Below are positions 9,127 to 33,871 of a stretch of 45,337 bases of DNA, piece after piece. Source of the DNA: Gemmatimonadota bacterium (GTDB lineage: Bacteria; Gemmatimonadota; Gemmatimonadetes; Longimicrobiales; RSA9). The stretch's first letter is position 1, and each line of letters opens with the position of its first letter. The DNA is taken from positions 30,733-76,069 of the forward strand of contig JBBDRO010000105.1 of NCBI GenBank assembly GCA_040905425.1. The letters run 5' to 3'. Under the pieces are notes generated by a model. That model was given only the letters and a program-made list of their open reading frames with translations. It was not told where the DNA came from and did not search any database. A program made the position numbers and the translations under genes.

Positions 9127-9142
9127 GCGCGCACCGTCCTGC

Positions 9143-10054
<912 letters not shown>

Positions 10055-10169
10055 GGGACGGGGGTGCGGGTACATTCGCCGTCGGTCGGGCCGCGGTCCG
10101 GGAGCGGACCATGCACCTGTCGTTCCCGGACGCCGATGCGGCCGCTCAACTTACCCGGGCCACCACCGA

Positions 10170-11360
10170 ATGACCACCCTGCTCCAGCGCGCCGCCGAAC
10201 TGGCCGAGGACCTGACCGGTCTGCGCCGGGACCTGCACGCCCACCCCGAGCTCGCCTTCCAGGAGACGCGCACGGCGGCGCTGGCGGCGGAGCGCGCCGG
10301 CGCGCTGGGCTACACGGTACGCACCGGTGTGGGGCGCACCGGGGTGGTGGCAGAGCTGGCGAACGGGGACGGCCCGGTGGTGGCGCTGCGTGCGGATATG
10401 GATGCCCTCCCCATCCAGGAATCAAGCGACGTCCCCTACGCCAGCTCCGTGGCCGGCGTCATGCACGCCTGCGGGCACGACGCCCACGTGGCGTGCCTGC
10501 TGGGCGCGGCGCGCCTCCTGGCGGACGCCCGGGCGGCGGGGACGCTGCCCGCCGGGACGGTGCGCCTGCTCTTCCAGCCCTCGGAGGAGGCCGCCGACGA
10601 GGAGGGCAAGAGCGGGGCGCGCCGCATGGTGGAGGAGGGGGCCATGGCCGGCGTGGACGCGGTCTTCGGCCTGCACGTGGGCGGCGACCTGCCAGCGGGC
10701 ACGGCCTTCTTCAGCCCGGGCCCCATCATGGCCGGCTCGGACTCCTTCCGCGCCACCGTGCGCGGCCGGAGCGCGCACGCTGCGCGCCCCCAGGAGGGGG
10801 TGGACGCCATCGTGCTGGCCGCGCAGGCGGTGAGCGCCCTGCAGCAGGTGGTGGCGCGGCGCACCTCCCCGCTGGACGCCGCCGCCGTGACCATCGGCCG
10901 CATCGAGGGCGGCGTGGCCGAGAACGTGGTGGCCGAGGAGGTGCGCCTGGAGGGCACGTTCCGCTACTTCGAGGGCGCGCTGCGCGAGCGCCTGCATGAT
11001 GAGATCCGCCGCGCCTTTGCCGTGGCCGACGCGCTGGGCGGCGTCAGCCGGGTGGACTTCCGCCCCGGCTACCCGCCGGTGGTCAACCACCCCGGCATGA
11101 CGGCGCTGGCCGAGGCCGCCGCCCGGGAGGCGCTGGGCGCCGATGGCGTGGCGCCCTACGAACCGTGGATGGGCGCCGAGGACTTTGCCTTCCTGCTGGC
11201 GGAGGCACCCGGCTGCTTCTTCTGGTTGGGCGCCGCGCCCGCCGACGGGCCGCGCGCGCATCACACCCCCACCTTCGACATCGACGAGCGCGTCCTGCCG
11301 CGCGGCGCCGCGGTGCTGGCCGCCGTGGCCATGGCCGCGCTGCGCAGCCCGGGCGGCTGA
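10170..11360 (+). CDS. M20 family amidohydrolase (M20D/HipO-like)
   Basis: RRDLHAHPELAFQE, LRADMDALP, MHACGHDAH, FQPSEE, GAEDF and HHTPTF motifs. Confidence 0.92.
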   Translation: MTTLLQRAAELAEDLTGLRRDLHAHPELAFQETRTAALAAERAGALGYTVRTGVGRTGVVAELANGDGPVVALRADMDALPIQESSDVPYASSVAGVMHACGHDAHVACLLGAARLLADARAAGTLPAGTVRLLFQPSEEAADEEGKSGARRMVEEGAMAGVDAVFGLHVGGDLPAGTAFFSPGPIMAGSDSFRATVRGRSAHAARPQEGVDAIVLAAQAVSALQQVVARRTSPLDAAAVTIGRIEGGVAENVVAEEVRLEGTFRYFEGALRERLHDEIRRAFAVADALGGVSRVDFRPGYPPVVNHPGMTALAEAAAREALGADGVAPYEPWMGAEDFAFLLAEAPGCFFWLGAAPADGPRAHHTPTFDIDERVLPRGAAVLAAVAMAALRSPGG

Positions 11361-19560: not shown

Positions 19561-20559
19561 ATGACGTTCGACCGTCCTCCCATCCTCTCGCGCTGCCACT
19601 TCTGCGCCGCCGACTTTTCTCCCTTCGAGGAGGGCAGCGTGCCGCACGGCGGGCGCACGGCCTTCGATCCATGGCAGGGCAGGCTGTGGCGCATCTGCGG
19701 GCAGTGCGGACGGTGGAGCGCGGCGCCGCTGGACGCGCGCTGGGAGGCGCTGGAGGCGTGCGAACGCGCCGCGCGGGACCGCGGGCGGGTGCGGCTGGAG
19801 ACGCAACACCTCACGCTGCTGCGGGTGGGCGGCGCGGAGCTGGTGCGCGTGGGGCGTGCGCCGCGCCCGGAATTCGCGGGTTGGCGCTACGGGGACCGGC
19901 TGCCGGAGTGCCGGCCGCGCGGCTGGTGGGCCGGCCTGCTGGCCCGTATCACGGCGCTCCCTGGCGCACCGCCGGGCGGCGTGGACTTTCACGGTCAGCC
20001 GCATGGCCACCCGGGCGCCTGGGCGGCGGCGGCGTTCGCGGAGCACGGTGCGGCGCTGGACTACGTCTTCCGCCACGTGCCGATGGCCCCGTCGTGCCCC
20101 GGCTGCCAGGGCCCGCTGCCCCTGGCCGGCACCGCCTTCGCCGATCTGCGTCTGCTGGATGAAGGTTCCGGGCCCGCGGTGACGGCGCCCTGCGCGCGCT
20201 GCCGGACGGAGGTGCTCCTGCCGCTCGCCACGGCCCGGGCGGCGTTACGTCTGGGCCTGGCGGTGGTCAACCGGCCGCTGCGGCGCGTGGCCACGGCGGA
20301 GGCCGCCGGCGTACGCGTGGAGCGCGCGGGCGGCAGGCAGTCGTTCGTGCACGGCCTGGCTCGGGAGCACGTGGCGCTGGGGGAGCTGGAGCCCACGGAG
20401 CGGCTGGGACTCGGACTGGCGCTGGATGAGGAAGCCGAGGCCGAGTTGCTGGAGCAGGAGTGGCGGGAGGCGGAGGAGCTGGCGGCGCTGATGGACACCG
20501 AGTTGAGCCGCGTAGAGGGCTTCGACGCCCTGCGGGACCGGGCCCTCGAGGATGACTAG
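19561..20559 (+). CDS. Hypothetical protein with four CxxC pairs (putative zinc ribbons)
   Basis: CHFC, CGQC, CPGC and CARC; acidic helical C-terminus; fills the gap between flanking genes. Confidence 0.7.
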   Translation: MTFDRPPILSRCHFCAADFSPFEEGSVPHGGRTAFDPWQGRLWRICGQCGRWSAAPLDARWEALEACERAARDRGRVRLETQHLTLLRVGGAELVRVGRAPRPEFAGWRYGDRLPECRPRGWWAGLLARITALPGAPPGGVDFHGQPHGHPGAWAAAAFAEHGAALDYVFRHVPMAPSCPGCQGPLPLAGTAFADLRLLDEGSGPAVTAPCARCRTEVLLPLATARAALRLGLAVVNRPLRRVATAEAAGVRVERAGGRQSFVHGLAREHVALGELEPTERLGLGLALDEEAEAELLEQEWREAEELAALMDTELSRVEGFDALRDRALEDD

Positions 20560-20699
20560 CGTGGCGTTCGGCCGACCGGCAGGGTGGACATTTCGGGAGT
20601 GCGCATGACCGGGCGGGCGCCGACCGGAAGCACGGCCGCGGGCAGGTGCGTAGCGCGCGCGCGGAACCCGGCGCGGCGTCGTCGCTTACAAAACGGGCT

Positions 20700-21179
20700 T
20701 CAGATGGTCTCGATCGGGCAGGTCAGACCCTCCCACTTGAGTTCCTTGCCCTCGCCCTGGCAGGCGCCGCAGATGCCATAGATCTGCAGGCGGTAGCGGG
20801 CCGGGACGAAGTCGTGGCGGCGCGCGGCCTCCTCGTGGAGGCGCACCAGTTCGGGCGAGTGGATCTCCTCCACCTTGCCGCACTCGGTGCACACCAGGTG
20901 CTCGCGGACGGGCTTCTGGCCGAAGAGGTGCTCGTAGCGCTTGAAGCCCTCGCCGAAGTCGTGCTCCGCCACCAGGCCGCTCTTGACCAGCATCTCCAGC
21001 GTGCGGTAGATGGTGGCCTTGCCGATGCGTTCGCCACGCTCGCGCAACAGGGACTCGATCTCCTCCACGGAGAGATGCTCGCTGGAGCCGAAGACCACCT
21101 CGGCGATGGCCTCCCGCTGCTGCGTGACGGGGAGCCCCTGGTCGCGCAGATAGCGGCGAAAGAGGTGGACGAACGTCAT
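20700..21179 (-). CDS. fur: Fur-family transcriptional regulator
   Basis: TQQREAI, HLSVEEI, ATIYRTL, HLVCTECG and GICGAC motifs; AGGAGG before ATG 21179. Metal specificity unknown. Confidence 0.88.
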   Translation of the reverse strand: MTFVHLFRRYLRDQGLPVTQQREAIAEVVFGSSEHLSVEEIESLLRERGERIGKATIYRTLEMLVKSGLVAEHDFGEGFKRYEHLFGQKPVREHLVCTECGKVEEIHSPELVRLHEEAARRHDFVPARYRLQIYGICGACQGEGKELKWEGLTCPIETI

Positions 21180-21289
21180 ACGGCATCCTCCTGCGGCTCG
21201 GCCCGCGGACCGGGCGCCGCGAGCGATACGGATAGGGAATCGATAGCGCATCACCGCGTCGCGGGCAACGCGCTGTGTGCCAGGGTATG

Positions 21290-21832
21290 CTACCCCGGGG
21301 ACGGGTTTTCCATCCCGTCCCCGGGGGGCGGGGCGGCATCCATGGAGGGGTCCGGGGGGCCGGCCTGCTCCGCCGCGGCCTCCGCGGGCGGCTCCGCCGG
21401 GTCCTCGGAGGCAACACTGCCGCCCAGTTCTTCGATCAGCGTGGCCCACGCCCCGGCATTGCCGGCCAGCGTCACCTCCCGCGGCGGCGCGTCCCCCACC
21501 TCGTCGCCGACGCGGCGCACCACGCCCTCCACCACCCGCGGTAGCGCGTCGACCGGCGCCAGCGCGTGTTCGTCCACGCGCTCCTCCACCGTGCCCTGAC
21601 CGCGGTGGTTGCGCGTGACGCGGAAGTGCGCCGTGAGCACGCGCCGCCGCTCCGCGTGCTCGGCGAAGGCGGCCACCACGATCACCGTGCTCTCCACGTT
21701 GCCCGCCCGCCGGGTGGGGAAGAGCCACAGCACGTCCATGGTGTCCACGGGGAGGACGGCCGGCAGGCGTTGCAGGAGAGCGTGGAGGGCGCCCTCGTCC
21801 TCACCCGCGTTGACCCACTTCTCGACGCTCAC
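21290..21832 (-). CDS. Hypothetical protein
   Basis: 180-aa ORF with a GTGA overlap to the upstream DHH gene. Confidence 0.7.
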   Translation of the reverse strand: MSVEKWVNAGEDEGALHALLQRLPAVLPVDTMDVLWLFPTRRAGNVESTVIVVAAFAEHAERRRVLTAHFRVTRNHRGQGTVEERVDEHALAPVDALPRVVEGVVRRVGDEVGDAPPREVTLAGNAGAWATLIEELGGSVASEDPAEPPAEAAAEQAGPPDPSMDAAPPPGDGMENPSPG

Positions 21833-22899
21833 TCGCCCTCCCCGGCACGCACCGCGCGCCGCACGGCGTCCAGCACCCGCGCGCGCGCCTCCTCGAGCGG
21901 CGCACCCATGAGCGCGCCGCTGGCCTTGCGATGCCCGCCGCCGCCGAACTCGCGGGCCACGGCGTTGACGTCCACCGCGCCGCTGGAGCGCAGGGACACC
22001 TTGGTGCCGTCCCCCTGTGTGGGGCGGAAGAGCAGCGCCACCTCGGTGCCGTCGACCGAGCGGGCATGCTCCACGATCCCCTCCAGATCATCACTGTCGG
22101 CGCCCAACCCCTCCATGATGCCGCGCTCGATGGTGATCCAGGTGATGGGCAGCGTGCCGTCTACCTCAAGGTTACCCAGCGCGTGGCGCAGCAGGTGGAC
22201 GCGGCGCAGCGGCACCCTGGCGTAGATGCGGCGGTAGACCGCCTCGGGGTCCACCCCCTGCGCCAGCAGGTCGCCCGCCACGGCGTGGGCCCGGGGACTG
22301 GTGTTGGAGAAGCGGAAGGAGCCCGTGTCGGTGAGGATGGCGGTGTAAAGCGCCTCCGGGATGGGCGCGGCCCACGGCGTCGGGACTGCCGCCACCACGA
22401 ACAGATCGCGAATCAGCTCGCCCGTGGCGCACGCGGTCGCGTCCTGGAAGACGATGCCTTCGAAGCCCGTGGCGGGGGGCGGGTGGTGATCGATCACCGC
22501 CACGGGCACGCCGGCCACGGCGCCGGCCACGCGCCCGATCCGGGACGGCTCTCCGGTGTCCAGCACGAGCAGCAGATCCGCCCGCTTGCACACCTCGGCG
22601 AAGCGTGCGCTGCCGGGCTCCGGCACCTCGGCGCCCTCCCGCAGCAGGTGGCGGAAGAGTTCCGGGAAGGGTGTGCCGTTGGCAATGGCCACCTCCTTGC
22701 CCAGACCGCGCAGCCAGGCATCCATGGCCGCCTCCGAGCCCGCGCCGTCACCGTCCGCGTTGACGTGCGTGGTAAGCACGATGCGCTGTGCCCCGCGCAG
22801 TGCCGCGAGCACGCTGGCCAGCCCCTCGCGCCGCGCCTGCGGGACGGCTGCCACCGTGTCCGCGCCCGGCCGAGCGCCGGCCGCTGTTGATCCGTTCAT
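21829..22899 (-). CDS. nrnA: DHH/DHHA1 phosphoesterase (bifunctional oligoribonuclease/pAp phosphatase)
   Basis: HVNADGD, IDHH, TDTGSF, SLRS and GGGGH..ASG motifs. Confidence 0.88.
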   Translation of the reverse strand: MNGSTAAGARPGADTVAAVPQARREGLASVLAALRGAQRIVLTTHVNADGDGAGSEAAMDAWLRGLGKEVAIANGTPFPELFRHLLREGAEVPEPGSARFAEVCKRADLLLVLDTGEPSRIGRVAGAVAGVPVAVIDHHPPPATGFEGIVFQDATACATGELIRDLFVVAAVPTPWAAPIPEALYTAILTDTGSFRFSNTSPRAHAVAGDLLAQGVDPEAVYRRIYARVPLRRVHLLRHALGNLEVDGTLPITWITIERGIMEGLGADSDDLEGIVEHARSVDGTEVALLFRPTQGDGTKVSLRSSGAVDVNAVAREFGGGGHRKASGALMGAPLEEARARVLDAVRRAVRAGEGE

Positions 22900-23585
22900 A
22901 CTTGCTCCGTTCCCGTCCAGGTAGATTCGCGCGGCAGGCGCTTGCGCACCTTGGCCCAGGTGGACGCCAGGTGGACCAGGCGGGAGGCGGCCACGCCGTG
23001 CAGCGTGGCGTGCGCCAGCGCCGCCAGAAAGGACGCCGGATCCCCGATGTCGAAGTCCGGCAGCCGGATATGGGTCCCGCCCACCTCCGCCAGCGTGTGG
23101 GCGTCCGACCCCGCACCCAGCGGCAGGCCACGCTCCTGGGCCCAGCTCACGGCCCGCTCGTTCAGGGCGGGATCGTGGATGCGCCCGTTGAAGCCCTCCA
23201 CGGCGTGCACCAGATCGGCCACTTCGGGCAGGATGGCGCCGCCGCCACCCTTGCCGCCCGTGAACGGGTGCGGCACGTACACGATGCCGCCCTGCTCGCG
23301 AATGCGCAGACAGGTTTCGCGCGCCGGCGTGCCGCCCGGGATCTCCTCGCGCAGGAAGAGGCCGATGATGTCCACGCGCTCGGCCGTCTTCACCTCCTCA
23401 CCCACGATGACCTGCGCCGGATGGCGGCGCTGCAGCCAGCGCGCCGCGTCCAGCGTGTCATGGTCGGTGACGCAGATGCGCTGGATGCCCCGCGCCACCG
23501 CGGCGGCCAGCACCGCCTCCGGATCGGAGAGGCAGTCGAAGGAGGCCGCCGTGTGCAGGTGCATGTCCAGGCGCAGGCCGCTCAC
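22896..23585 (-). CDS. PHP-domain phosphoesterase
   Basis: DMHLHT.ASFD, TDHD, GEE, PHPF and GSDAH motifs. Confidence 0.88.
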   Translation of the reverse strand: MSGLRLDMHLHTAASFDCLSDPEAVLAAAVARGIQRICVTDHDTLDAARWLQRRHPAQVIVGEEVKTAERVDIIGLFLREEIPGGTPARETCLRIREQGGIVYVPHPFTGGKGGGGAILPEVADLVHAVEGFNGRIHDPALNERAVSWAQERGLPLGAGSDAHTLAEVGGTHIRLPDFDIGDPASFLAALAHATLHGVAASRLVHLASTWAKVRKRLPRESTWTGTEQV

Positions 23586-24235
23586 GGCGCGCCCCGCCGC
23601 TCGCCGTGCGCGGCTGCCTGCCGCTCCACCTGGCGCCAGGCAGCGACGGCGCGGGCGCGCAGCTCCTCGAGCGTACCGTCGTTGGGCACCACCAGATCCG
23701 CGCGCGCGGCCTTGTCCGCCGCCGCTCCCTGGCTGCCCATCATGGCGAGCGCCTCGGCCTCCGGCAGCCCACGCAATTCCACCAGGCGGCGCAGACGCTC
23801 CGCCTCGGGCGCGTCCACGAACACCACCAGGTTCATGTCGGCGTCACGACCCACCTCGAAGAGTAGCGGCACCATGTGCACCACCACGTCGTGGCCCGCG
23901 GCGCCCAGGCGCGCCTCCTCGGTCCGGCGCAGCCGCTCCACCTCGGGGTGCGTGAGGGCCTCCAGCGCCTGGCGCTCCGTGGGATTCGCGAACACGCGCC
24001 GGCGGAGCGCGGCGCGATCCAGCCCGCCATCGGGGGCCAGCACCTCGCCGCCGAAGCGGGCAGCCACCGCCGCCAGCCCCGGCGTGCCGGGCGCCACGGC
24101 CCGGCGGGCAAGCTCGTCCGCGTCCACCACGGCCGCACCCAGCGCGCGCCAGACGTCCGCCACCGCGGACTTGCCGCTGGCAATGTTGCCGGTGAGTCCC
24201 ACGCGAAAAAGGGCGGGTCCGGGAACGTCGGTCAC
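23582..24235 (-). CDS. coaE: Dephospho-CoA kinase
   Basis: GLTGNIASGKS, DAD, LDRAALRRRVF, THP and PLLFE motifs. Start estimated at GTG 24235. Confidence 0.92.
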   Translation of the reverse strand: MTDVPGPALFRVGLTGNIASGKSAVADVWRALGAAVVDADELARRAVAPGTPGLAAVAARFGGEVLAPDGGLDRAALRRRVFANPTERQALEALTHPEVERLRRTEEARLGAAGHDVVVHMVPLLFEVGRDADMNLVVFVDAPEAERLRRLVELRGLPEAEALAMMGSQGAAADKAARADLVVPNDGTLEELRARAVAAWRQVERQAAAHGERRGAP

Positions 24236-24251
24236 GAAGGCAGAGGACGCG

Positions 24252-24653
24252 TCAGAACGTGAGGGTGCGCGTGAGGTCATCCTCCGTACCGATCTCACCA
24301 TCCTCACCCGGCGAGCCGATGGTCACGCCCGTGCGGCTCTGCCTTAGGTAGTAGTCGTTCCCCCAGGCGTCCTTGCCGTCCCGGCCCGAGAGGGTGTTGC
24401 GCTGCACCCACGCCGGGAAGTTGCGCGGCGTCGGCAGCGGGATGAGCGACTTGTGGTCCTGCGAGAGCTCCCGTACGAGCAGGACGATCTCGTTGCGCGT
24501 GTTGTAGCGGCGAATGGGGTTCGCCGCCCACGCCCCCACGGGTCCCAGGCGCACGAAAACGGGCTCGGCGATCCGTGCCAGGCGTTGCCGCGTGGCCGGA
24601 ATGGTCCAGGCCAGGCCAAGGATCACGACCACGATGAGTAGCTTCTTGATCAT
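24252..24653 (-). CDS. Small membrane-anchored protein with a GspG (T2SSG)-like C-terminal motif
   Basis: N-terminal hydrophobic helix; DAWGNDY...IGSPGEDGEIGTEDD resembles the GspG DPWG..Y..S.G.DG..GT.DD motif. Confidence 0.7.
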   Translation of the reverse strand: MIKKLLIVVVILGLAWTIPATRQRLARIAEPVFVRLGPVGAWAANPIRRYNTRNEIVLLVRELSQDHKSLIPLPTPRNFPAWVQRNTLSGRDGKDAWGNDYYLRQSRTGVTIGSPGEDGEIGTEDDLTRTLTF

Positions 24654-24889
24654 TGCTTCTCCACTGCGGACCGCACGCCGTCCGCCAGTGCCCACCGCAG
24701 GTAACGCTCCAACGCGCGGGCCGGAGGCAGCTGGCTGGCGGCACCGTAAGCGGTCTCCAGGCGCCAGGCCACGTACGCGGCCGGCGGCAGGGGCAGAAAG
24801 GGCCAGCGCCGCTGCCAGCCGCGCGCGCGAAAGCGCCAGCTGGCCCGCAGCAGCAGCGGGAGTAATGCCGGACGGCGCACCGCGTACAT
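24650..24889 (-). CDS. Small hypothetical protein (true start may be somewhat upstream)
   Basis: RGWQRRWPFLPLPPAAYVAWRLETAYG; its stop overlaps the ATG of the next gene. Confidence 0.6.
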   Translation of the reverse strand: MYAVRRPALLPLLLRASWRFRARGWQRRWPFLPLPPAAYVAWRLETAYGAASQLPPARALERYLRWALADGVRSAVEKQ

Positions 24890-25100
24890 GGCCAGCGTAC
24901 GGAGCAGGACGGGATAGCGCAGGTCAGTCAGCTTGCCACCCGCGGGCTCGAAGACATGGCCAGCCCGCCGCGGCCCTGGAGCCCCGCGTCGGGCGCGGGC
25001 CGCGTTCGCGACGCCGCAGCAAGAAGATAGACCCCCGCAGGCGAACGTGTAAACCTCTGCCACGGGCCGCGCTCCGCCCGCCCGGGCGCGCCCGCCGGGG

Positions 25101-25129
25101 TGGCCACCCTCCAACCCCGCCGGTATAAT
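25101..25129 (+). promoter_or_regulatory. Putative sigma70 promoter of the E1 gene
   Basis: TGGCCA-17 bp-TATAAT (perfect -10), about 80 bp upstream of the ATG. Confidence 0.6.
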
Positions 25130-25208
25130 ACGACGCTCCCCGGAGGGGGGCCGCGCCCTCCGCAGCAGGACTCCGGGGGCCGCGTCACGACCACCCGCGC
25201 CGCGATCC

Positions 25209-27422
25209 ATGGCAACCAGGTCTCCCGGCTCCAAGCCTCGCAAGAAGAAGCCGTCCCCGGCCAAGGAGAAACCCTCCTCGGCCAAGGAGAAAGCCTCCTC
25301 GGCCAAGGCAAGGCAAGCCGCCGCGGACGGCAAGGGCCCATCCGAGCTGGACGGCGCGGCGCTGCTGGCCTTCTACCGCACCATGGTGACGGCGCGGCGC
25401 ACCGATGACCAGGAGATGAAGCTCAAGCGCCAGAACAAGATCTTCTTCCAGATCTCGGGCGCGGGGCACGAGGCGGTGCAGGTGGCCGTGGCGGACCATC
25501 TGCGCCCCGGCCGCGATTGGTGCTACCTCTACTACCGGGACCGCGCGCTGGCGCTGGCGCTCGGCGTCTCCCCCTACGAGCAGCTGCTGGAGGCCGTGGG
25601 CGCCGAGGCGGATCCGGCCAGCGGCGGCCGCCAGATGCCCTCCCACTGGGGCCACCGCCCGCTGCGCATCGTGAGCGTGTCCTCCCCCACCGGCACGCAG
25701 TACCTGCAATCGGTGGGCTGCGCCGAGGCCGGCTGGCGGGCGCTCCGCGACCCGGCCATGCAGGAGGCCATCGAGGCCTTCGACGAGGACGAGGTAGTGC
25801 TGTGCACCACGGGCGAGGGCCAGACCTCGCAGGGCGAGTGGTGGGAAGCCATGAACACCGCCTGCAACCTGGCTCTACCGGTTGTGTTCCTGGTAGAGGA
25901 CAACGGCTACGCCATCTCGGTGCCCGTGGAGGTGAACACCGCCGGCGGCAGCATCAGCAAGCTGTTCGGCGCCTTCCCGGGCATGCACCTGGAGGAGTTC
26001 GACGGCGGCGACGTGCGCGCGAGCCACGCCGCCGTGGGCCGCGCCATCGAGCACTGTCGCGCGCGCGAGGGCCCCGCCCTGCTGCACGCCCACGTCACGC
26101 GGCCCTATTCGCACTCCATGTCGGACGACGAGCGCCTCTACCGCACGCCGGCGGAACGCGAGCAGGAGGAGCAGCGGGATCCGCTCACCCGCCTCCGCGA
26201 GTTGCTCATCGCCGAGAAGCATGCCACCGCCGAGGAGCTGGACGCGCTCGAGGCGGAGGTGGCGCAGGAGGTCCAGGAGGCCTCCGACCGCGCCCTGGAC
26301 ATGCCGCAGCCGGCGCCGCACACCGCCATGGACTTCCTCTTCTCACCGGACGTGGACCCTCGCTCCGACGAATTTGCCACGGAGCCCGCCTTCGAGGGCA
26401 CCGAGACCACCATGGTGGACCTCATCAACGCCTGCGTGCGGGATGAGATGGAGCGCGATCCGCGCATCGTGGTGTTCGGCCAGGACGTGGCCGACGCCAG
26501 CCGCGAGGAGGCGCTGGAGGAGGTGAAGGGCAAGGGCGGCGTCTTCAAGTGCACCTGGGGGCTGCAGCGGAAGTTCGGCAGCAACCGCGTGTTCAACTCG
26601 CCGCTCGCCGAAGCCAACATCGTGGGGCGCGCCATCGGCATGGCCACGCGCGGTCTCAAGCCCGTGGTGGAAATCCAGTTCTTCGACTACATCTGGACCG
26701 CCATGATGCAGATCCGCGACGAGCTGGCCACCATGCGCTACCGCTCGGGCGGCAACTGGTCCTGCCCCGTGGTCATCCGCGTGGCCTACGGCGGCTACCT
26801 CAAGGGCGGCGGCATCTATCACTCCCAGACGGGCGAGACGCTCTTCACCCACACGCCGGGACTACGCGTGGTGCTGCCTTCCAACGCGCTGGACGCCAAC
26901 GGCCTGCTGCGCACCGCCATCCGCTCCGAGGACCCCGTGCTCTTCCTGGAGCACAAGCACCTCTACCGCCAGGTCCACAACAAGGGCCGCTATCCGGGCA
27001 GGGACTACATGGTCCCCTTCGGCAAGGCGGCCGTGGTGCGGGAGGGCACGGACGTCACCGTGGTGGCGTGCGGCGCGCTGGTGAAGCGCACCATGGACGC
27101 GGCCAGGCTGCTGGAGCAGGAGGGGGTGAGCGTGGAGGTGCTCGACCTGCGCACGCTGAACCCGCTGGACATGGAGACCGTGGCCGCCTCCGTGAAGAAG
27201 ACCAACAGGGTGCTGGTAGCGTACGAGGACAGCCTGTCGTGGGGCATCGGCGCCGAGATCGCCGCCCGCATTGCCGACGACCTCTTCCCCTGGCTGGACG
27301 CCCCCGTCAGGCGCGTGGCCTCACTGGACACCTGGGTGGCCTACGCGCCGCAGCTGGAGGATGCCATCCTGCCGCAGGTGGAGGACGTGCGGCAGGCACT
27401 GGCGGAGCTGGCGGCGTACTGA
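25209..27422 (+). CDS. Fused alpha/beta E1 component of a 2-oxoacid (likely branched-chain) dehydrogenase
   Basis: GAGHEA, YYRDR, GRQMPSH, TPP motif GEG...[30 protein letters not shown] and DPVLFLEHK. Confidence 0.93.
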
Positions 27423-27429
27423 GGCGGTC
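27402..27429 (+). repeat. Left copy of a 28-bp direct repeat (att-like) covering the E1 3' end and stop
   Basis: GCGGAGCTGGCGGCGTACTGAGGCGGTC; 27/28 identical to 29584-29611. Confidence 0.9.
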
Positions 27430-27620
27430 CCTGCGGGGCACGGAGCTCCTGCGCTAGTCGGTCGTGGGCGGACGCGGCCAGTCGAGGATGTCCCCGGGCC
27501 GGGGACCCACGAGGGGTCTTCACTCCTCGCAACATGCGCCGAAACAGCCATGAATGTGCAATCCCCCGACCCCATGCGTATCGCATTCGACGACTCCAAC
27601 ATCCGCGGGCGATAAAAGGC

Positions 27621-27649
27621 TTGACATCCGCCCCCCCCCCAAGCATGTT
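27621..27649 (+). promoter_or_regulatory. Putative sigma70 promoter with a C10 homopolymer in the spacer
   Basis: TTGACA (27621-27626), 17-bp spacer TCCG-C10-AAG, CATGTT (27644-27649); A-rich GATAAAA just upstream. Confidence 0.65.
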
Positions 27650-27702
27650 CTGGATGTAGCACTTCTGTTCGCCCCGGTTGATGCCTACCACCTGGGGGGG
27701 CC

Positions 27703-28785
27703 GTGCAAACGTCCCGGGCCGAAAGCCTCCTGCTGTTGGCCGTTGCGGCGCTCGACTCCAATCTCGCCGCTGGGCAGTCGGCAGCCACGATCGAGGACTG
27801 CGTCCGATGCGACATGCATGTGGAGCGCATCGCCACGTTCGGGGGCGACGAGCGCGACTACGATATCCGGCACGGCGATCGCAAACTCGTTCGCCTCCAG
27901 GACAGCACTTTCCTGGCTGTCCCGTTCACGGCCGACCACATCCTCCGCCTGGACCATCACGGCAACAAGCTCGCGGTGATCGGACGCCCCGGCAGCGGTC
28001 CGGGGGAGTTCCGGAACATTAATACCCTCACGCTCGGCCCTGGCGATAGTATCTGGGTACACGAACACACCCGCCTCCAGGTGCTTGGTCCAGATGGGGC
28101 CTACGTCAGATCAGTTGAACTAGCCGTTACCCCGTTGACCGTACTTCCGGCCGGTCCGGATGCCTACTTGATGGCCGTTGAGATTCTCACGCCGGAACTG
28201 GCCGGATATCCACTTCATATCCTCGACAAGGCTTCGGGCAAGCTCCGCTCCTTCGCTGATGGGCCGATCGTTCGCGATCCTAATCGTCCCACGTCGGTGT
28301 ACCGCACCATCGAGGTTGCTGGCAAAGTTGCCGTTACCAGCAGTTGGAAACGATACGAGTTGACCTACTGGCAACTTCCCGAGATGACGCGTACGCGGGT
28401 GCTGCGGCGCGACGTCGATTGGTTTCCCCCCGACGACTTCACCCCCTGGCCGGGGCCGGCCTCCGCAATGCCACCGAAGCCCAACTTGTTCGCGCTGGAC
28501 ATCGACAACTGGAGCCACACTTGGGTGGTGGTGAACCGGGCAGCGGATGATTGGCGACCGAATCCGGATGATGATACCCATGGTCGCGCTACGGCCAACG
28601 GACATTACAGGAAAGCCATCATCGAGCGGATCGATCCGCAGGAAGGACGCGTTGTCGGCAGGGCCATCCTTCCGAACACGGAAGTGATCGGCTTCGCCGG
28701 AGATGCCCTTGTGTACAGCTACAGGGAATCGCCAGCGGGTGCGATTCTGGTGGATGTCTGGCAGCTCACTCCGAATCCTTCCTAG
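27703..28785 (+). CDS. Secreted 6-bladed beta-propeller (NHL/TolB-like) protein
   Basis: Signal-like N-terminus, CVRC, IGRPGSGPGEF...LGPGDSIWV blade motif, GAYVRS. Confidence 0.75.
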   Translation: MQTSRAESLLLLAVAALDSNLAAGQSAATIEDCVRCDMHVERIATFGGDERDYDIRHGDRKLVRLQDSTFLAVPFTADHILRLDHHGNKLAVIGRPGSGPGEFRNINTLTLGPGDSIWVHEHTRLQVLGPDGAYVRSVELAVTPLTVLPAGPDAYLMAVEILTPELAGYPLHILDKASGKLRSFADGPIVRDPNRPTSVYRTIEVAGKVAVTSSWKRYELTYWQLPEMTRTRVLRRDVDWFPPDDFTPWPGPASAMPPKPNLFALDIDNWSHTWVVVNRAADDWRPNPDDDTHGRATANGHYRKAIIERIDPQEGRVVGRAILPNTEVIGFAGDALVYSYRESPAGAILVDVWQLTPNPS

Positions 28786-28804
28786 CTCCAGCTTGGAGGC
28801 AGCC

Positions 28805-29401
28805 ATGCGGTACTCGAAGGGAAGCCGGAACGCCGTCGCGGCGGGCATCGTGGTGATCGCCCTCTGCGCGCTCATGTATTCCGCGTGGCGGGTCGCGCCG
28901 GTGCAGGCTGGCGAGCCGTCGATCAGCCCGGACATCCAGACCGTCGTCACGTCGCTCGACGTGCTCCCGCGCCCGCTCCTGGCCGGGTGCTGCAAGTGCT
29001 TCCCCTCGAGCGGGCCCAAGCACTACTTCGGCGGTGGCCCCACGTACTGCGAGAATGGCTGCCCCCTCGAAACTGAGTTCCCTGATTACAACTGCTTCTC
29101 CTGTGAGGGCGGCGAGGATCCCCCGTGCCATGGCGAGACCTACGACGGAACCTGCGGCGACAAGCACGACAACTGCTATCTGCCCACCGAGGAGGAGGAA
29201 GTCGAGGAATTCCTGGCGTTGATTTCCGCAGCATCCGCACCGGAGTTCGACCGGCTCGTGTTGGCGGCCATTCCGCTTCAGAGTGTCAGGATCAACTGGG
29301 CCCGGAGCGCAGTGCAGGTAGATGGTTGCCCTGGGTCTGGTGTGGTTGCGCACTACCCGATCAGTGACGCATTGCTTGCGCAGGCGGCAGCTCTGGACTG
29401 A
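28805..29401 (+). CDS. Secreted Cys-rich hypothetical protein (198 aa)
   Basis: GGAGG RBS; signal peptide ending ...PVQA; 10 Cys in a 63-aa core (28988-29176); acidic linker; C-terminal RSAVQVDGC...VVAHYPI domain. Confidence 0.75.
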   Translation: MRYSKGSRNAVAAGIVVIALCALMYSAWRVAPVQAGEPSISPDIQTVVTSLDVLPRPLLAGCCKCFPSSGPKHYFGGGPTYCENGCPLETEFPDYNCFSCEGGEDPPCHGETYDGTCGDKHDNCYLPTEEEEVEEFLALISAASAPEFDRLVLAAIPLQSVRINWARSAVQVDGCPGSGVVAHYPISDALLAQAAALD

Positions 29402-29508
29402 TCGGTGATCGTCCCGGCCGGCCGCCATACAGGTCGAGGCACGTAGCGGACCGGGGTCAATCTGCGGCGCCAAGGCCTGCCATTTCGTGATGGGGCGGCG
29501 CTCCGATC

Positions 29509-29541
29509 GGCGGCGGCGGTGATCTTACGCCGCCGCCATTT
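29509..29541 (+). terminator. Candidate terminator of the islet transcript
   Basis: GGCGGCGGCG/CGCCGCCGCC 10-bp stem followed by ATTT. Confidence 0.5.
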
Positions 29542-29583
29542 GGGATGGCGTCCACGCCGTCATTCATGGCGCTGGTCCGCAGT

Positions 29584-29611
29584 GCGGAGCTGGCAGCGTA
29601 CTGAGGCGGTC
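29584..29611 (+). repeat. Right copy of the 28-bp direct repeat (att-like)
   Basis: GCGGAGCTGGCAGCGTACTGAGGCGGTC; still reads AELAAY*, with one synonymous difference. Confidence 0.9.
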
Positions 29612-29728
29612 GGCCTCGCTGTCGAGCCGTTTCATGTAAGCGACGTCCCCGCGCGGCTTCCACTCGCCAGGCAACCTGCGCCGCCACGTCGGTGTCCCAC
29701 GGGGTAAGCACCCTGAACCGAGGCTGCC

Positions 29729-30763
29729 ATGCCCGCCTTCCCGTTGCGGATCCGCTCCGTCCGTTCCCCGTTCCTGATGGTCGCATTCCTCCTGGCCTGT
29801 GCGGGGGAGGACGGTGCCGCCCCCGAACTGGTCTGGCCGGACTGGTCCGCACCCGCGACGGTGATCGGCGCGCTGGACACGCCCGCGGAGGAGGTGTTCG
29901 GCCGCATCGCGGACGTGGCCGTGGGCCCGGAGCAGAACATCCACGTGCTGGACGACCAGGCATCGGAGGTACGGGTGTTCACGCCCGGGGGGGCGCACGT
30001 GGCCAGCTTCGGCGGCCCCGGGGAGGGCCCGCGCGAACTGCAGCGCCCGGTGTCGCTCACGGTGGACGGCACGGGCCGCTCCCTGGTGGGGCTGGCGGAC
30101 CGGCGAGTCAAGGCGTTCTCCATCAGCGAACCCGACGCGCCGCCCGCCATGGTGGAGCTGAGTGTACTCGGCCGCACCCTGTGTGTGGTCGGAGAGCGGA
30201 TCGTGGCGCAGGGCTCCACGCCGGAGGATACGACCGTGGTCTGGGTCCACGACCTCCAGGGGAATCTGCAGGCGTCCTACGGCGCCGGTCCGCCGGCGCC
30301 GAACGCCATGATCGGCTACGCTATGCGGCAGGGACGGGCCGCCTGCGTACCGCCCGACCTGACGGTCTACAAAGTCGGCAACGACTCCACGCTCACGGCG
30401 TACACGCTGGACGGCCAGCGCCTGTGGTCGGCGGTGATCCCCGCATGGCTAGGCACCATCGTCGAGGCCACGGAGAACGGCTACAGCGTACGCGCGCCGG
30501 AGGATGGATTCACCGTCCTGGAGTCTCTGGTGCCGCTCTCGGCCAGGGCGCTCCTGGCCCAGGTCTCCTTTCGTACTACCGCCTCCCGGGAGGCGGGCGA
30601 ACGCTGGGAGGAGCTCAGGAGCTATCTCATCGATCCGCGGGACGGCAGCGTGCAGCCGCTGGCGGAGGCGCTCCCCCATCTGGTGGGTGCGTCACTGGAC
30701 TGGCTCATCGGCCTGGAGGTGGATCCCTTCCCCCGACTGCTCGTGTGGGAGCGGCCGCGCTAG
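29729..30763 (+). CDS. 6-bladed beta-propeller lipoprotein
   Basis: Lipobox LLAC; FGRIADVAV...IHVLD...VRVF...FGGPGEGPREL..P NHL-like motif. Confidence 0.8.
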   Translation: MPAFPLRIRSVRSPFLMVAFLLACAGEDGAAPELVWPDWSAPATVIGALDTPAEEVFGRIADVAVGPEQNIHVLDDQASEVRVFTPGGAHVASFGGPGEGPRELQRPVSLTVDGTGRSLVGLADRRVKAFSISEPDAPPAMVELSVLGRTLCVVGERIVAQGSTPEDTTVVWVHDLQGNLQASYGAGPPAPNAMIGYAMRQGRAACVPPDLTVYKVGNDSTLTAYTLDGQRLWSAVIPAWLGTIVEATENGYSVRAPEDGFTVLESLVPLSARALLAQVSFRTTASREAGERWEELRSYLIDPRDGSVQPLAEALPHLVGASLDWLIGLEVDPFPRLLVWERPR

Positions 30764-32121
30764 CGCCGTGCCGCCTCGCCGACCAGCGCCAGCACCCGGT
30801 CCAGTTCCGCCTCCAGCACCCACACGTGCGGTGAGAGGCGCATCCAGCCACGCTCACCCTCGGAGATGACCCGCGTGCGGACGTTGGCCGTGCCGAGCGT
30901 CCGCTGCAACTCCAGGCCCTCCAGGCCGTCCACGGTGAAGGAGACCATGCCCGCGCCGAGTTCATCGTCGAGCGGCGAGACGATGCGCACGCCGGGAAGT
31001 TCGGCCAGCCCCTCCAACAGGCGGCGCCGCAGCTCGCGGATGCGGGCATGCACGCGCTCGAAACCGATGGTTTCCAGAAAGCTGAGCGCCGCCACGAGTC
31101 CCGCCATGCGGGATTCGTCGAAGGTGCCCAGGTGGTTGAAGCGGTGGGCGCCCAGAGAGAGATCGTCCCAGCCGCCGGAGGCCAGCGTGGGCCAGAGCTC
31201 CGTGCGCCAGCGCTCGGCCATCCACAGGAAGCCGGTGCCCTGGGGCGCCAGCAGCCACTTGTGGGGCGAGGAGGCATAGAAGTCGGCGCCGGTGGCGCTG
31301 ATGTCCACGGGCATGAGCCCCGGGGGATGGGCGCCGTCCACCACGAAGATGATGCCCCGCTCCCGGCAGAGGCCGCCCAGTTCCCGGATCGGCAGCACAG
31401 CGCCGTTGGTGAAGGTCACGTGGGACACCGAGAGGACGCGCGTGGCCGGCGTAAGCGCTCCCCTGATGGCGTCCAGCAGTTGCCCAGTGTCCGTGGGCGG
31501 CACGGGCAGCGTGGCAAAGCGGAGCGTGGCGCCGTGGCGCGCCGCCACCAGCTCCCAGGGACAGCGCCCGCCGATGTGTTCGTGGTCCGTGGTGACGATC
31601 TCGTCGCCGGGGCCGAGCTCCAGCCCGTTGGCCACGAAGCTCATCCCCTCGGTGGTGTTCCTGGGGAAGACGAAGCCGGCAGGATCGGCGCCGAGCAGCG
31701 CGCCGAGCGGCGCCTTGAGGGCATCCCAATCCACGCCAGGCGGATGGGTCTCCGCTACGCGGCGGGTGTGCTCGAGGAGCGCGTCCACCACCACCCGTGG
31801 CTGTGCGCCGAGCGTGCCCACGTTCAGATAGATGCGGTCGGGCGCCAGGTGGAAAGCAGTGCGCACGGTCTCCCAGAGGCCCTCGCGTGCCCCGCCGTGC
31901 GCGCTGAGGCTGCTGGCCGCGCCATCGCTTCCGTGCGCGCCGTCGCTTCCGTGCGCGCCGAGGCTGGCGTTCGCGCCGTCGCTTCCAGCCGTAGTTTCCT
32001 TGCCGGAAGCGGTGCCGAGCGCCGTCCGGAGGGCGGTCAACTCCCGCGGCCAGGCCAGCCCGGTGGCCGCACCGGCGGCGAGCGTGGCCAGGAAGCCGCG
32101 GCGCGGTAGCGCGTTGCTCAT
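30760..32121 (-). CDS. Class-V PLP-dependent enzyme (isopenicillin-N epimerase/cysteine desulfurase-like) with a Tat signal
   Basis: PRRGFL twin-arginine; YLNVGTLG, RNTTEG, DHEH, DGAH and SPHKW (PLP Lys) motifs. Confidence 0.88.
   Translation of the reverse strand: MSNALPRRGFLATLAAGAATGLAWPRELTALRTALGTASGKETTAGSDGANASLGAHGSDGAHGSDGAASSLSAHGGAREGLWETVRTAFHLAPDRIYLNVGTLGAQPRVVVDALLEHTRRVAETHPPGVDWDALKAPLGALLGADPAGFVFPRNTTEGMSFVANGLELGPGDEIVTTDHEHIGGRCPWELVAARHGATLRFATLPVPPTDTGQLLDAIRGALTPATRVLSVSHVTFTNGAVLPIRELGGLCRERGIIFVVDGAHPPGLMPVDISATGADFYASSPHKWLLAPQGTGFLWMAERWRTELWPTLASGGWDDLSLGAHRFNHLGTFDESRMAGLVAALSFLETIGFERVHARIRELRRRLLEGLAELPGVRIVSPLDDELGAGMVSFTVDGLEGLELQRTLGTANVRTRVISEGERGWMRLSPHVWVLEAELDRVLALVGEAARR
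31919..31986. repeat. Imperfect 18-bp coding repeats (GAHGSD) in the post-signal linker
   Basis: GCGCCRTCGCTTCCGTGC x2 plus a partial third copy. Confidence 0.75.
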
Positions 32122-32205
32122 GGGCGGGCCGGCCGGGAGGGAAGCATGGACCGAACATGCCCGCCACCTCGCGCGCCGCGCAAGGCGCCACGTAGGTTGC
32201 CTGGC

Positions 32206-33300
32206 ATGCGCGCCGTCACCCGCTTCCTGCACGAATACGTGCGCCCCGACCCCGCCCGAGTGCGGCGTGTCGAGGTGACCTACACCCGAGGGCAGGAGCG
32301 CCTGCCGGCCACCATCTACGTGCCCGCGCGCCGGCCCAGGCCGCTGCCGGCGTTCGTGGTCCTGCACGGCCTCACCTGTACGGCACGCGAGCATCCGGGG
32401 CTGGTGCGCTTCGCGCGCGCGATGGCGGCCGGCGGCACGCTGGTCATGATCCCCGAGATCCCGGAGTGGCGGGACCTACGTGTGGCACCGGCCATCACCA
32501 TCCCCACCATCCGCGCCGCCGTGCACGCGCTGGCCGAGCGCACGGATGTGGCGCCGGGCGGCGTGGGCATCCTGGGCTTTTCCTTCGGCGCCACGCAGGC
32601 GCTGGTGGCCGCGGCGGGGAACGGGCTCAAGGGCGAGGTGCGCGGCATCGCCGCGTGGGGCGGCTACCGCGACGTGCGGCGCCTGTTCCGCTTCGGCATT
32701 ACCGGCGAGCACGAGTGGGAGGGCGTCGGCGAGCATATGGACCCCGACCCGTATGGCTGCTGGATCATGGTCGGCAACTACCTGACCGGTATCCCGGGGT
32801 ACGGCGACGCGCACGCCACGGCGGCGGCCGTCCACAGCCTGGCGGTGGAGGCGGGGCGGACCGGCACGCCTTCGTGGGAGCCCACCCTGGACCCCATGAA
32901 GGCACGCCTACGCGCCGGCCTCCCCGCCGCGGAGCGCCCGCTCTTCGATGTCGTGGCGCCGCCGGTCGGGGCCGCCGTAGACCGGGTGGAGGGCGCACGC
33001 ATGGCCGAGCTCCTGGCCACCGCCGCGCTGGCCGCCGATCCGCTGCTGGATCCCGGTCCGTATCTCCAGGAGCTGCGCACGCCCACGCTGCTCGCCCACG
33101 GCAGGGACGATCGCCTGATCCCCTACAGCGAGATGCTCCGCCTGGAGCGGGACCTGCCCGCCGCGGCCAATCGTGGCGGCACCGTGACGGGCCTCTTTGC
33201 CCATTCGGGCGGCACGCGCCGGGAGCTCGGGCGGGTGGGCACGGTGGTGGAGGGCGTGCGCTTCGTGCGCCTGCTCGGGCGCATTCTCGAACGGCTGTAG
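32206..33300 (+). CDS. Alpha/beta-hydrolase fold protein
   Basis: VVLHG, GFSFG nucleophile elbow, HGRDDRLIP, C-terminal His (FAHS). Confidence 0.8.
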   Translation: MRAVTRFLHEYVRPDPARVRRVEVTYTRGQERLPATIYVPARRPRPLPAFVVLHGLTCTAREHPGLVRFARAMAAGGTLVMIPEIPEWRDLRVAPAITIPTIRAAVHALAERTDVAPGGVGILGFSFGATQALVAAAGNGLKGEVRGIAAWGGYRDVRRLFRFGITGEHEWEGVGEHMDPDPYGCWIMVGNYLTGIPGYGDAHATAAAVHSLAVEAGRTGTPSWEPTLDPMKARLRAGLPAAERPLFDVVAPPVGAAVDRVEGARMAELLATAALAADPLLDPGPYLQELRTPTLLAHGRDDRLIPYSEMLRLERDLPAAANRGGTVTGLFAHSGGTRRELGRVGTVVEGVRFVRLLGRILERL

Positions 33301-33439
33301 CGGCCGCGCGCAGGAAGAGACTTGCGCACGGCCATCCCCGGACCCTTATTCGGAGGCACGGGTAAACCCCCTCGAACGCTGCCGCCGGTACGACCCGCGG
33401 CCCTCTCCCGACGTATTTCATGGAGCGCTGGAGCTGCTG

Positions 33440-33871
33440 ATGGACTCCTCGGCGATCCCGGTCTTCCTGGCCGGACCGTTCCCGGTACTGCACACGTGGC
33501 GCATCGACGACGTGGATGCCGAGGTGGAGCTGGACGTGGCCCTGCTCATCGCTGGGCTACCCAACCTGCTGGCATCCACGCAGTTTCCGCTCGACGAGAC
33601 CTGGAACCGCATCCGCGACGCGCTCGGCAGCGGCGACGCCCGGCTGGGCGTGGCGGGACTGCCTCATGAAGGCGAGTCCGTGACGGGCGCCCCGGAGATC
33701 TTCCCGTCGGCCTACATCGGACTCGAATGCGCCAACGGCGAGCGGCTCGTGCTGTCGCACATCCGTGGCATGGACTCCGGACAGCAGGCCGAGGCCTACG
33801 CCCGCGAAGTCATGGACGCGCTGTTGCAGGGGTTGTCACCGGAGGAGCTGGGCGTGGCCGTGGACGACTGA
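33440..33871 (+). CDS. Hypothetical acidic protein
   Basis: Protein-like composition from MDSSAIPVFLAGPFP; start uncertain. Confidence 0.65.
   Translation: MDSSAIPVFLAGPFPVLHTWRIDDVDAEVELDVALLIAGLPNLLASTQFPLDETWNRIRDALGSGDARLGVAGLPHEGESVTGAPEIFPSAYIGLECANGERLVLSHIRGMDSGQQAEAYAREVMDALLQGLSPEELGVAVDD

Follow-up and report, generated by a model that had tools for sequence, protein, structure and literature searches.

A 2.2-kb islet encoding no recombinase lies between duplicated ends of a 2-oxoacid dehydrogenase E1 gene in a Longimicrobiales bacterium

Results

Structure of the islet and its borders

We analysed 45,337 nucleotides (nt) of DNA from an uncultured Longimicrobiales bacterium of the phylum Gemmatimonadota (assembly GCA_040905425.1, contig JBBDRO010000105.1, positions 30,733 to 76,069 of the forward strand). 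This whole stretch is called the window, and coordinates refer to it. In the window, an islet of 2.2 kb with two genes (27402-29611) lies at the end of a gene for the E1 component of a 2-oxoacid dehydrogenase and is bounded by two copies of a 28-bp segment, which holds the 3′ end of this gene. The features of the locus given in this section are on the + strand.

The E1 gene (25209-27422) encodes a fused alpha/beta E1 component of 737 amino acids (aa), which matches the Pfam families E1_dh, Transket_pyr and Transketolase_C. The last six codons and the stop codon of this gene, together with the following 7 nt, make up the left copy of the repeat (27402-27429), GCGGAGCTGGCGGCGTACTGAGGCGGTC. The right copy (29584-29611) likewise encodes AELAAY followed by a stop codon and 7 nt, the TGA triplets being at 27420-27422 and 29602-29604. 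By direct reading and by a repeat search, 27 of the 28 positions are identical, as had been noticed in an earlier sequence-only reading of this DNA. The one difference is at position 12 (G at 27413, A at 29595), and the longest exact stretch common to both copies is 16 nt. The sequence-only reading had pointed out that this difference is synonymous; GCG and GCA indeed both specify alanine, but a single site carries little weight. When up to three mismatches were allowed, two copies of the 28-mer were present in the window, against 0.00 expected from 100 shuffles. In the whole assembly (4,120,607 bases), the 28-mer had two matches and a control pattern had none. The 28-mer is not a chance match, and because there are only two matches in the whole assembly, it is not a dispersed repeat, a possibility that had been raised against an insertion. 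A dyad-symmetric or dif-like organization of the 28-mer was also considered and was rejected: symmetric arms are absent, as judged by eye only.

The repeated unit comprises 2,182 bp, namely a 2,154-bp insert and one 28-mer. As the sequence-only reading had stated, the interior is richer in A and T: the G+C content (GC) of 27430-29583 is 0.637, compared with 0.697 for the E1 gene, 0.709 for the next gene, 0.722 for the window and 0.706 for the genome. The GC at third codon positions (GC3) is 0.72 in the first islet gene, orfA, and 0.94 in E1. The insert begins with a non-coding arm of 273 nt (27430-27702, GC 0.652), which is followed by orfA (27703-28785), orfB (28805-29401) and a second non-coding arm of 182 nt (29402-29583). 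Both arms are single-copy in the genome, and no Rfam match was found in the left arm or elsewhere in the islet. The two genes are separated by a spacer of 19 nt, which includes a GGAGG located 5 nt before the ATG of orfB. Just inside the two ends of the insert, CTGCGG (27431-27436) is the inverted complement of CCGCAG (29577-29582); a terminal inverted run this long is expected by chance at 1.2%. The right 28-mer, a displaced and non-functional copy of the E1 end, continues into the native spacer downstream of E1 (29612-29688, 77 nt).

A hairpin is present behind orfB, in which a 10-bp G+C stem is formed by 29509-29518 and 29528-29537 (−34 kcal/mol, z −2.9); this stem-loop (29509-29537) is probably the orfB terminator. 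The hairpin 3′ of the right repeat is weaker (−18.5 kcal/mol, z −2.2). Both had been predicted from the sequence, as had a promoter belonging to the islet. The promoter was not recovered: a consensus scan found no sigma-70 site on the + strand in 27300-29800, although promoters of this phylum may differ from the consensus.

A relative with an empty site

By scanning metagenomes with a 22-mer core of the repeat, we found a single metagenome contig, L024, that carries the empty allele expected by the sequence-only reading. Positions 10-7846 of L024 match window 19583-27429 at 90.5% identity over 7.9 kb upstream of the insert. Positions 7819-7919 align to window 29584-29688 (85% identity), and positions 7911-10975 match window 30751-33871. 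Thus, L024 has collinear flanks and one 28-mer, which is identical to the left copy at 28 of 28 positions and to the right copy at 27 of 28, and the right flank of the window, beginning with the native spacer, stands directly 3′ of it. The C-terminus of E1 and the left 28-mer are identical to those of L024, and the insertion left E1 intact. The islet is therefore an insertion with precise borders.

The islet is a gain in the lineage of the window and not a loss, because in two family-level relatives (loci L010 and L004) the distance from E1 to a convergent aminotransferase gene is only about 100 nt, because orfB-like genes were not found in the searched genomes of the family and because the composition of the insert deviates from that of its surroundings. 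Among the genomes searched, orfB-like genes occurred in 0 of 72 of the same family and in 20 of 257 and 3 of 71 of two sister families. This tally over 400 genomes of the order takes in genomes flagged as unpublished (among G015, G016, G018 and G026); the claims on individual loci are independent of them.

The junctions were checked against Logan contigs from four runs of one study, which were aligned to 26400-30900. The contig of run X1 spans 26946-30900, and X1 is possibly the source of the assembly. That of X2 spans 27273-30900 with zero differences. X3 crosses both junctions, the left at 27287-27458 and the right at 27892-30180, and X4 crosses the left one (27358-27566). No contig joining 27429 to 29612, or joining the two ends of the insert, was present among the contigs of the four runs, in which rare forms are dropped. 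One joint in X3, from 27158 to 30133 with 21 nt on the side, was taken as foreign or as repeat noise.

Two other explanations of the locus were weighed against these data. The islet might be ancestral and L024 might have lost it by recombination between the 28-mers. Such recombination between direct repeats would yield exactly the single-copy site of L024, and deletions may have occurred at this locus, because L024 also lacks a propeller gene (29729-30763) and yet retains a dispersed motif upstream of it. However, the short distance between E1 and the aminotransferase gene in the two outgroups, the 72 genomes of the family without orfB and the composition of the islet all stand against this order of events, and even with a loss in L024 the repeat demands an earlier insertion; we consider a reversed direction very unlikely. 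An assembly or binning artefact, in which reads of different strains were joined to give the repeat and the insert, is more improbable still. The genome, a draft assembled from metagenome data into 115 contigs (96.7% complete), does contain scaffold-gap duplications elsewhere, for example as repeats offset by 155 nt beside runs of N. Nevertheless, the 16-nt exact stretch common to the copies is shorter than assembly k-mers, and contigs of X2, X3 and X4 cross the junctions without differences, although all runs are from one study. Misassembly, which the sequence-only reading had named as a hazard, thus hardly comes into consideration.

Cargo of the islet

The cargo of the islet is a pair of genes for a propeller protein and a Cys/His-rich protein. 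Both genes have relatives at the protein level and are real, as had been assumed. The orfA product (360 aa) belongs to no Pfam family and has 58 six-frame matches in its own genome at 31% identity or less; the closest relative among 5.8 billion proteins searched is 29% identical. An AlphaFold model built from 22 sequences had a mean predicted local distance difference test score (pLDDT) of 84.9 and a predicted template modelling score of 0.83. The best Foldseek matches of this model were 4raa and 3s9j, exported six-bladed propellers from Bacteroides, and NHL domains. To judge from the model, orfA is probably a secreted six-bladed NHL-like beta-propeller and a divergent member of its family. 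The propellers keep a CxxC motif, in which C33 is present in at least 90% of the sequences and C36 is invariant.

The orfB product (198 aa) is Cys/His-rich, has an N-terminal hydrophobic segment and is unique in the genome. No close relative was found among the 5.8 billion proteins, and there was no usable match in the ESM Atlas. The model of orfB is partly confident (pLDDT 66.6) and gave no Foldseek match at E ≤ 0.001. Among 400 other genomes of the order, 23 have distant homologues. These homologues share the invariant residues C62, C65, H73, H109, C117, H121 and C124 and a conserved C-terminal domain. In all 11 loci that were fetched, a propeller gene adjoins the orfB homologue; it is orfA-like in ten of them and of a neighbouring type in the eleventh. 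Considering this conservation and the secretion signals of both proteins, which were judged by eye, the islet carries a complete two-gene module, which is probably secreted and dependent on metal or disulfides. No close relatives of the cargo were found in viral contigs. Our results flag the propeller and Cys/His-rich pair as horizontally exchanged cargo in Gemmatimonadota.

The gene order of the pair varies in other Gemmatimonadota genomes (loci L025-L035), where A-B, B-A and A-B-A arrangements occur. In genome G150 (L027), the A-B module most similar to that of the islet is flanked by two palindromic hairpins of 44 nt (1398-1441 and 3189-3230), which resemble terminators or repetitive extragenic palindromes. 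The GC of ten of the 11 loci with orfB homologues is 0.62-0.675, close to the 0.637 of the islet. All nine propeller paralogues of the genome itself that were examined (L016-L022, L120 and L124) have a GC3 of 0.57-0.75, and neighbouring housekeeping genes have about 0.9.

Recombinases and the search for a cognate element

The sequence-only reading had described the islet as lacking an integrase, and this was borne out by Pfam and NCBIfam scans and by whole-genome searches. Neither open reading frame (ORF) of the islet resembles a recombinase, no integrase or integrase remnant was found in or beside the islet, nor a transposase in the insert, and the insert is compact, with no pseudogene debris. 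In the whole genome, the Phage_integrase family (PF00589) has three matches, of which two are Xer-sized frames (313 and 368 aa) and one is an integrase of 468 aa; the Resolvase family (PF00239) has none.

The 468-aa protein is a tyrosine integrase with an arm-binding domain and is the only integrase of other than Xer size found in the assembly. It is encoded in an island of 7.8 kb (contig C94, 10369-18214; L039), which is bounded by a perfect direct repeat (59 bp) of the 3′ part of tRNA-Ser(CGA). Being a classical integrative element, this island served as a positive control.

The 22-mer core of the repeat had no matches in viral contigs and none in genome contigs representing 185,579 species by one genome each. 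A copy of the own E1 end downstream of E1 was found in 0 of 75 E1 loci of other genomes, and no match to the 28-mer was seen at 11 family-level E1 ends. Because the 28-mer is specific to a narrow lineage, the phage-type attachment (att) site attP of a cognate element would have to match a lineage-specific sequence, and no carrier of it is in sight. Other classes of mobile DNA do not describe the islet. The inverted run at its termini is only 6 nt, the duplication is 28 bp and the insert is single-copy, unlike a transposon, an insertion sequence or a miniature inverted-repeat transposable element. An integron cassette does not fit either: none of the three tyrosine recombinase matches is near the islet, which is flanked by directly repeated copies of a coding end and not by an attC. 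As for host capacity, the genome has two Ku genes as well as ComEC.

Gene-end duplications elsewhere in the genome

For 2842 long ORFs, we searched the genome with probes that joined the last 48 nt to the following 15 nt, requiring at least 22 identical bases within 12 kb. The probe recurred downstream in 30 of the 2842 ORFs and upstream in 10. From the 30, two N runs, four cases with a constant 155-nt offset and four full tandem paralogues were removed. The exact repeats offset by 155 nt (on contigs C20, C93, C15 and C40, with N runs seen beside the C40 copy) are probably scaffold-gap duplications and not biology.

Ten further loci (L036-L038 and L120-L128) carry a gene-end segment of 27-405 nt that is repeated 0.5-6.3 kb downstream with 82-100% identity. 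Nine were delimited by blastn, and the tenth is that on contig C56. The repeated segment is 305 nt on C30 (95% identity), 405 nt on C80 (89%), 164 nt on C62 (89%), 55 nt on C95 (93%), 128 nt on C100 (93%), 53 nt on C111 (92%), 297 nt on C74 (94%) and 50 nt on C28 (90%). On C75, both ends of a convergent gene pair are repeated (403 and 137 nt; 93% and 82%), and the 57-nt repeat on C56 is perfect. At most of these loci, the GC of the insert is below that of the gene. In nine of 11 entries, the islet included, the end of the repeat is within 30 nt of the stop codon, a number that is only partly informative because the probe forces overlap with the gene end. No end motif common to the loci was found.

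No integrase or transposase was found in the scanned ORFs of seven inserts (C30, C74, C75, C80, C95, C100 and C111). The cargo consists of orfA-family propellers on C80, C30 and C100, two toxin-antitoxin pairs, MNT/HepT on C75 and antitoxin/ParE on C95, and a DUF222-HNH protein on C111; sigma-54 activators and a DsbA-like thioredoxin also occur among the further loci. A member of the propeller family is present in four of the 11 gene-end islets. In the repeats of seven other loci, mismatches fall at the three codon positions in the ratio 26/22/51, which fits in-situ duplication and a donor-derived copy alike. For C30, no empty site was recovered from family-level relatives: the upstream neighbour is conserved, and none of five loci showed the downstream genes inside 1.5 kb; locus L132, from an unpublished genome, was left out of this comparison.

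Discussion

Comparison with known systems

One known route to such a structure is Campbell-type insertion-duplication, or homology-facilitated illegitimate recombination, in which one crossover between a circle and a short identical segment leaves the segment duplicated at both sides. A donor variant is then expected in the copy beyond the crossover, like the A at 29595. However, the homology at the islet is only 28 nt (16 nt uninterrupted), which is at or below the length for efficient RecA recombination. Such a route would also need a foreign circle that bore the lineage-specific 28-mer.

The closest description in the literature is that of gene units for restriction-modification (RM) systems whose insertion was accompanied by a long duplication of the target (Furuta et al. 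2010, PMC2853133). These units have repeats of 26-65 bp, which in some cases overlap a gene's 3′ end according to the legend of Fig. 3 of that article. The units described there are a few kb long and absent from a relative, have direct repeats that match one unique target, carry no integrase or transposase and deviate in GC. The islet resembles them in that both repeats align to the single target in L024, the repeat is unique and no mobile-element gene is present. The first screen of that study used repeats above 30 bp to exclude att-type repeats and the second used repeats above 20 bp, with a 26/26-bp case in Table 3, so that the 28-bp repeat of the islet falls below the first cut and above the second. 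In the article, the mechanism is given as unknown and DNA breakage by the RM cargo is tentatively proposed. Unlike those units, the islet is found in an uncultured Longimicrobiales bacterium and its cargo is not an RM system; therefore, the idea of cargo-driven cleavage is inapplicable, and we file the islet under this type of rearrangement and not under RM mobility.

A cis-mobilizable element (CIME), as defined in ICEberg 2.0 (PMC6323972), has no integration or transfer genes and retains the hybrid att sites attL and attR. Like the islet, it thus combines the lack of such genes with direct repeats at the 3′ end of a gene and a small cargo. Unlike the islet, for which no cognate and no second user of the site were found, a CIME as described there has functional att repeats of a known cognate integrative and conjugative element (ICE), which is able to integrate beside it.

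The footprint of the islet is real but belongs to a known kind, and as a target the end of a central-metabolism gene is classical. Phage 21 integrates in the 3′ end of icd in E. coli. The element e14 sits in the same gene end and leaves icdC as a C-terminal fragment that is displaced (PMC13626634, citing Hill et al. 1989). Thus, the choice of a central-metabolism coding sequence, to which the sequence-only reading had drawn attention, holds for the E1 3′ end but is not new. In both cases, the gene is completed by the edge of the element and a displaced fragment lies at its other end. On the description in that source, e14 differs in being a prophage of 15 kb that has an SOS-inducible site-specific recombination of its own, whereas the islet measures 2.2 kb, has no recombinase gene and contains only 18 coding nt in duplicate.

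Possible origin of the insertion

The islet may have been inserted with a long target duplication, independently of a recombinase, by host recombination or break repair. We regard this as evenly poised between right and wrong, and we favour it over a CIME-like product of att recombination. The gene-end duplications recur in the genome, their repeats vary in length and mobility genes are absent; therefore, a recombinase-independent route is favoured, and the presence of two Ku genes and ComEC in the genome is consistent with it. The joining left 28 bp of the target at both sides of the insert. E1 thereby keeps its own last six codons and stop codon, and a dead copy is found 2.2 kb downstream, before the original spacer. 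A staggered 28-nt break might have been filled in around captured DNA; as an equal option, a circular molecule carrying the 28-mer might have entered by a single crossover. Topologically, any explanation of the islet requires either such a fill-in or one crossover of the chromosome with a molecule that bears the 28-mer. The islet would now be a fixed, non-autonomous passenger, which could move only by ordinary homologous exchange between relatives.

Several points weigh against this recombinase-independent reading. The mechanism is without direct demonstration, and 28 bp is within the usual range of att cores, including the att range that the >30-bp screen of PMC2853133 excludes. If the insert were circularized, 182 and 273 nt of non-coding DNA would surround the core and give room for arm-type integrase sites, and the 6-nt inverted repeat just inside both ends is found there. 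The G/A difference fits heterology between attP and the bacterial site attB as well as it fits a later mutation. Low GC may be a sign of foreign DNA, but it is also a trait of the propeller family, and composition alone is no proof of a recent foreign origin. Moreover, the repeats of the other gene-end loci are diverged (82-96% identity), and these loci were found with a gene-end probe, so that their likeness to the islet is partly built into the search. To judge from their sequences, two of them, C56 and C74, may be remnants of tandem paralogues; the C56 insert holds paralogous permease genes, and gene conversion between paralogue ends is possible there.

The sequence-only reading had taken the repeats as attL and attR of a cassette mobilized in trans. 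A discrete insertion and repeats that match the E1 3′ end agree with this proposal; a cognate element or a second att site was not found in the genome. In the fuller form of this explanation, a small circle or a reduced island was inserted by a tyrosine integrase that acted in trans or was later lost, attP bore the final 18 nt of E1 and thus regenerated the gene, and a cognate ICE or phage could mobilize the islet like a CIME. The E1 end including the stop codon is regenerated precisely, the 28-bp block of identity is typical of att cores, and e14 in icd likewise sits at a conserved gene's 3′ end (PMC13626634). The core is surrounded by the non-coding arms of 273 and 182 nt. Of the two copies, the left one equals the site of the relative and the displaced one carries the lone G/A difference, as expected if the crossover was 3′ of the difference. 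The integrase island with the 59-bp tRNA repeat shows that the lineage hosts such elements, and the definition of a CIME by missing integration and transfer genes and intact attL and attR fits formally (PMC6323972). On the other side, no integrase or remnant was found in or near the islet, the insert is compact and free of pseudogene debris, and the sole non-Xer integrase uses a different att site in tRNA-Ser. The 28-mer is lineage-specific, being absent from the 11 family-level E1 ends and from the genome and viral collections, and no second element using the site was found in the genome or at the 75 other E1 loci. Furthermore, the roughly ten other gene-end duplications differ in sequence and length, and each would need its own lost integrase. 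We therefore consider the att explanation possible but doubtful.

A wider proposal would be that gene-end insertion with long duplication serves this Longimicrobiales lineage as an active, general and recombinase-independent means of gaining genes and is the vehicle that spreads its greatly expanded, low-GC3 propeller family; we think this generalization unlikely.

To the cases already described, the islet adds a clean empty site at about 90% identity, a cargo other than a nuclease and a conserved propeller/Cys-His module as passenger, as well as some ten sister loci in one genome that is nearly without integrases. Integrase-less islets with duplicated gene ends were first described for RM genes, and the present islet separates the footprint from that cargo, because the insert contains no nuclease gene. 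This lineage is suited to asking whether such insertions are made by host break repair, for which two Ku genes are present, or by short-homology recombination.

Neighbouring features of the locus

A second difference between L024 and the window covers 29689-30750. The gene at 29729-30763, which encodes a propeller-like protein of 344 aa with a weak DUF5128 match, is absent from L024. It has native composition (GC 0.709, GC3 0.89) and is followed by the convergent class-V aminotransferase gene. The junctions of this difference show microhomology of only 2-4 nt, and the last codons and stop codon of the gene lie in DNA that L024 kept. L024 retains the dispersed motif 75 nt upstream of the gene, a hint that DNA was deleted in L024 rather than inserted in the window.

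The dispersed motif is about 20 nt long (29635-29654) and is also conserved in L024. Its 17-nt core has 32 exact copies in the genome and 121 copies with up to two mismatches, on both strands. The copies are mostly intergenic and often less than 100 nt upstream of a start codon; their distances to start codons did not discriminate them from random positions. From its placement, the motif may be a promoter or leader element of the lineage.

Tandem in-frame repeats are present in both genes that face each other at the locus. Three Lys/Pro/Ser-rich units of 21 nt lie in the region for the E1 N-terminus (25241-25303), and four units of 18 nt lie in the N-terminal region of the aminotransferase gene (31895-31986).

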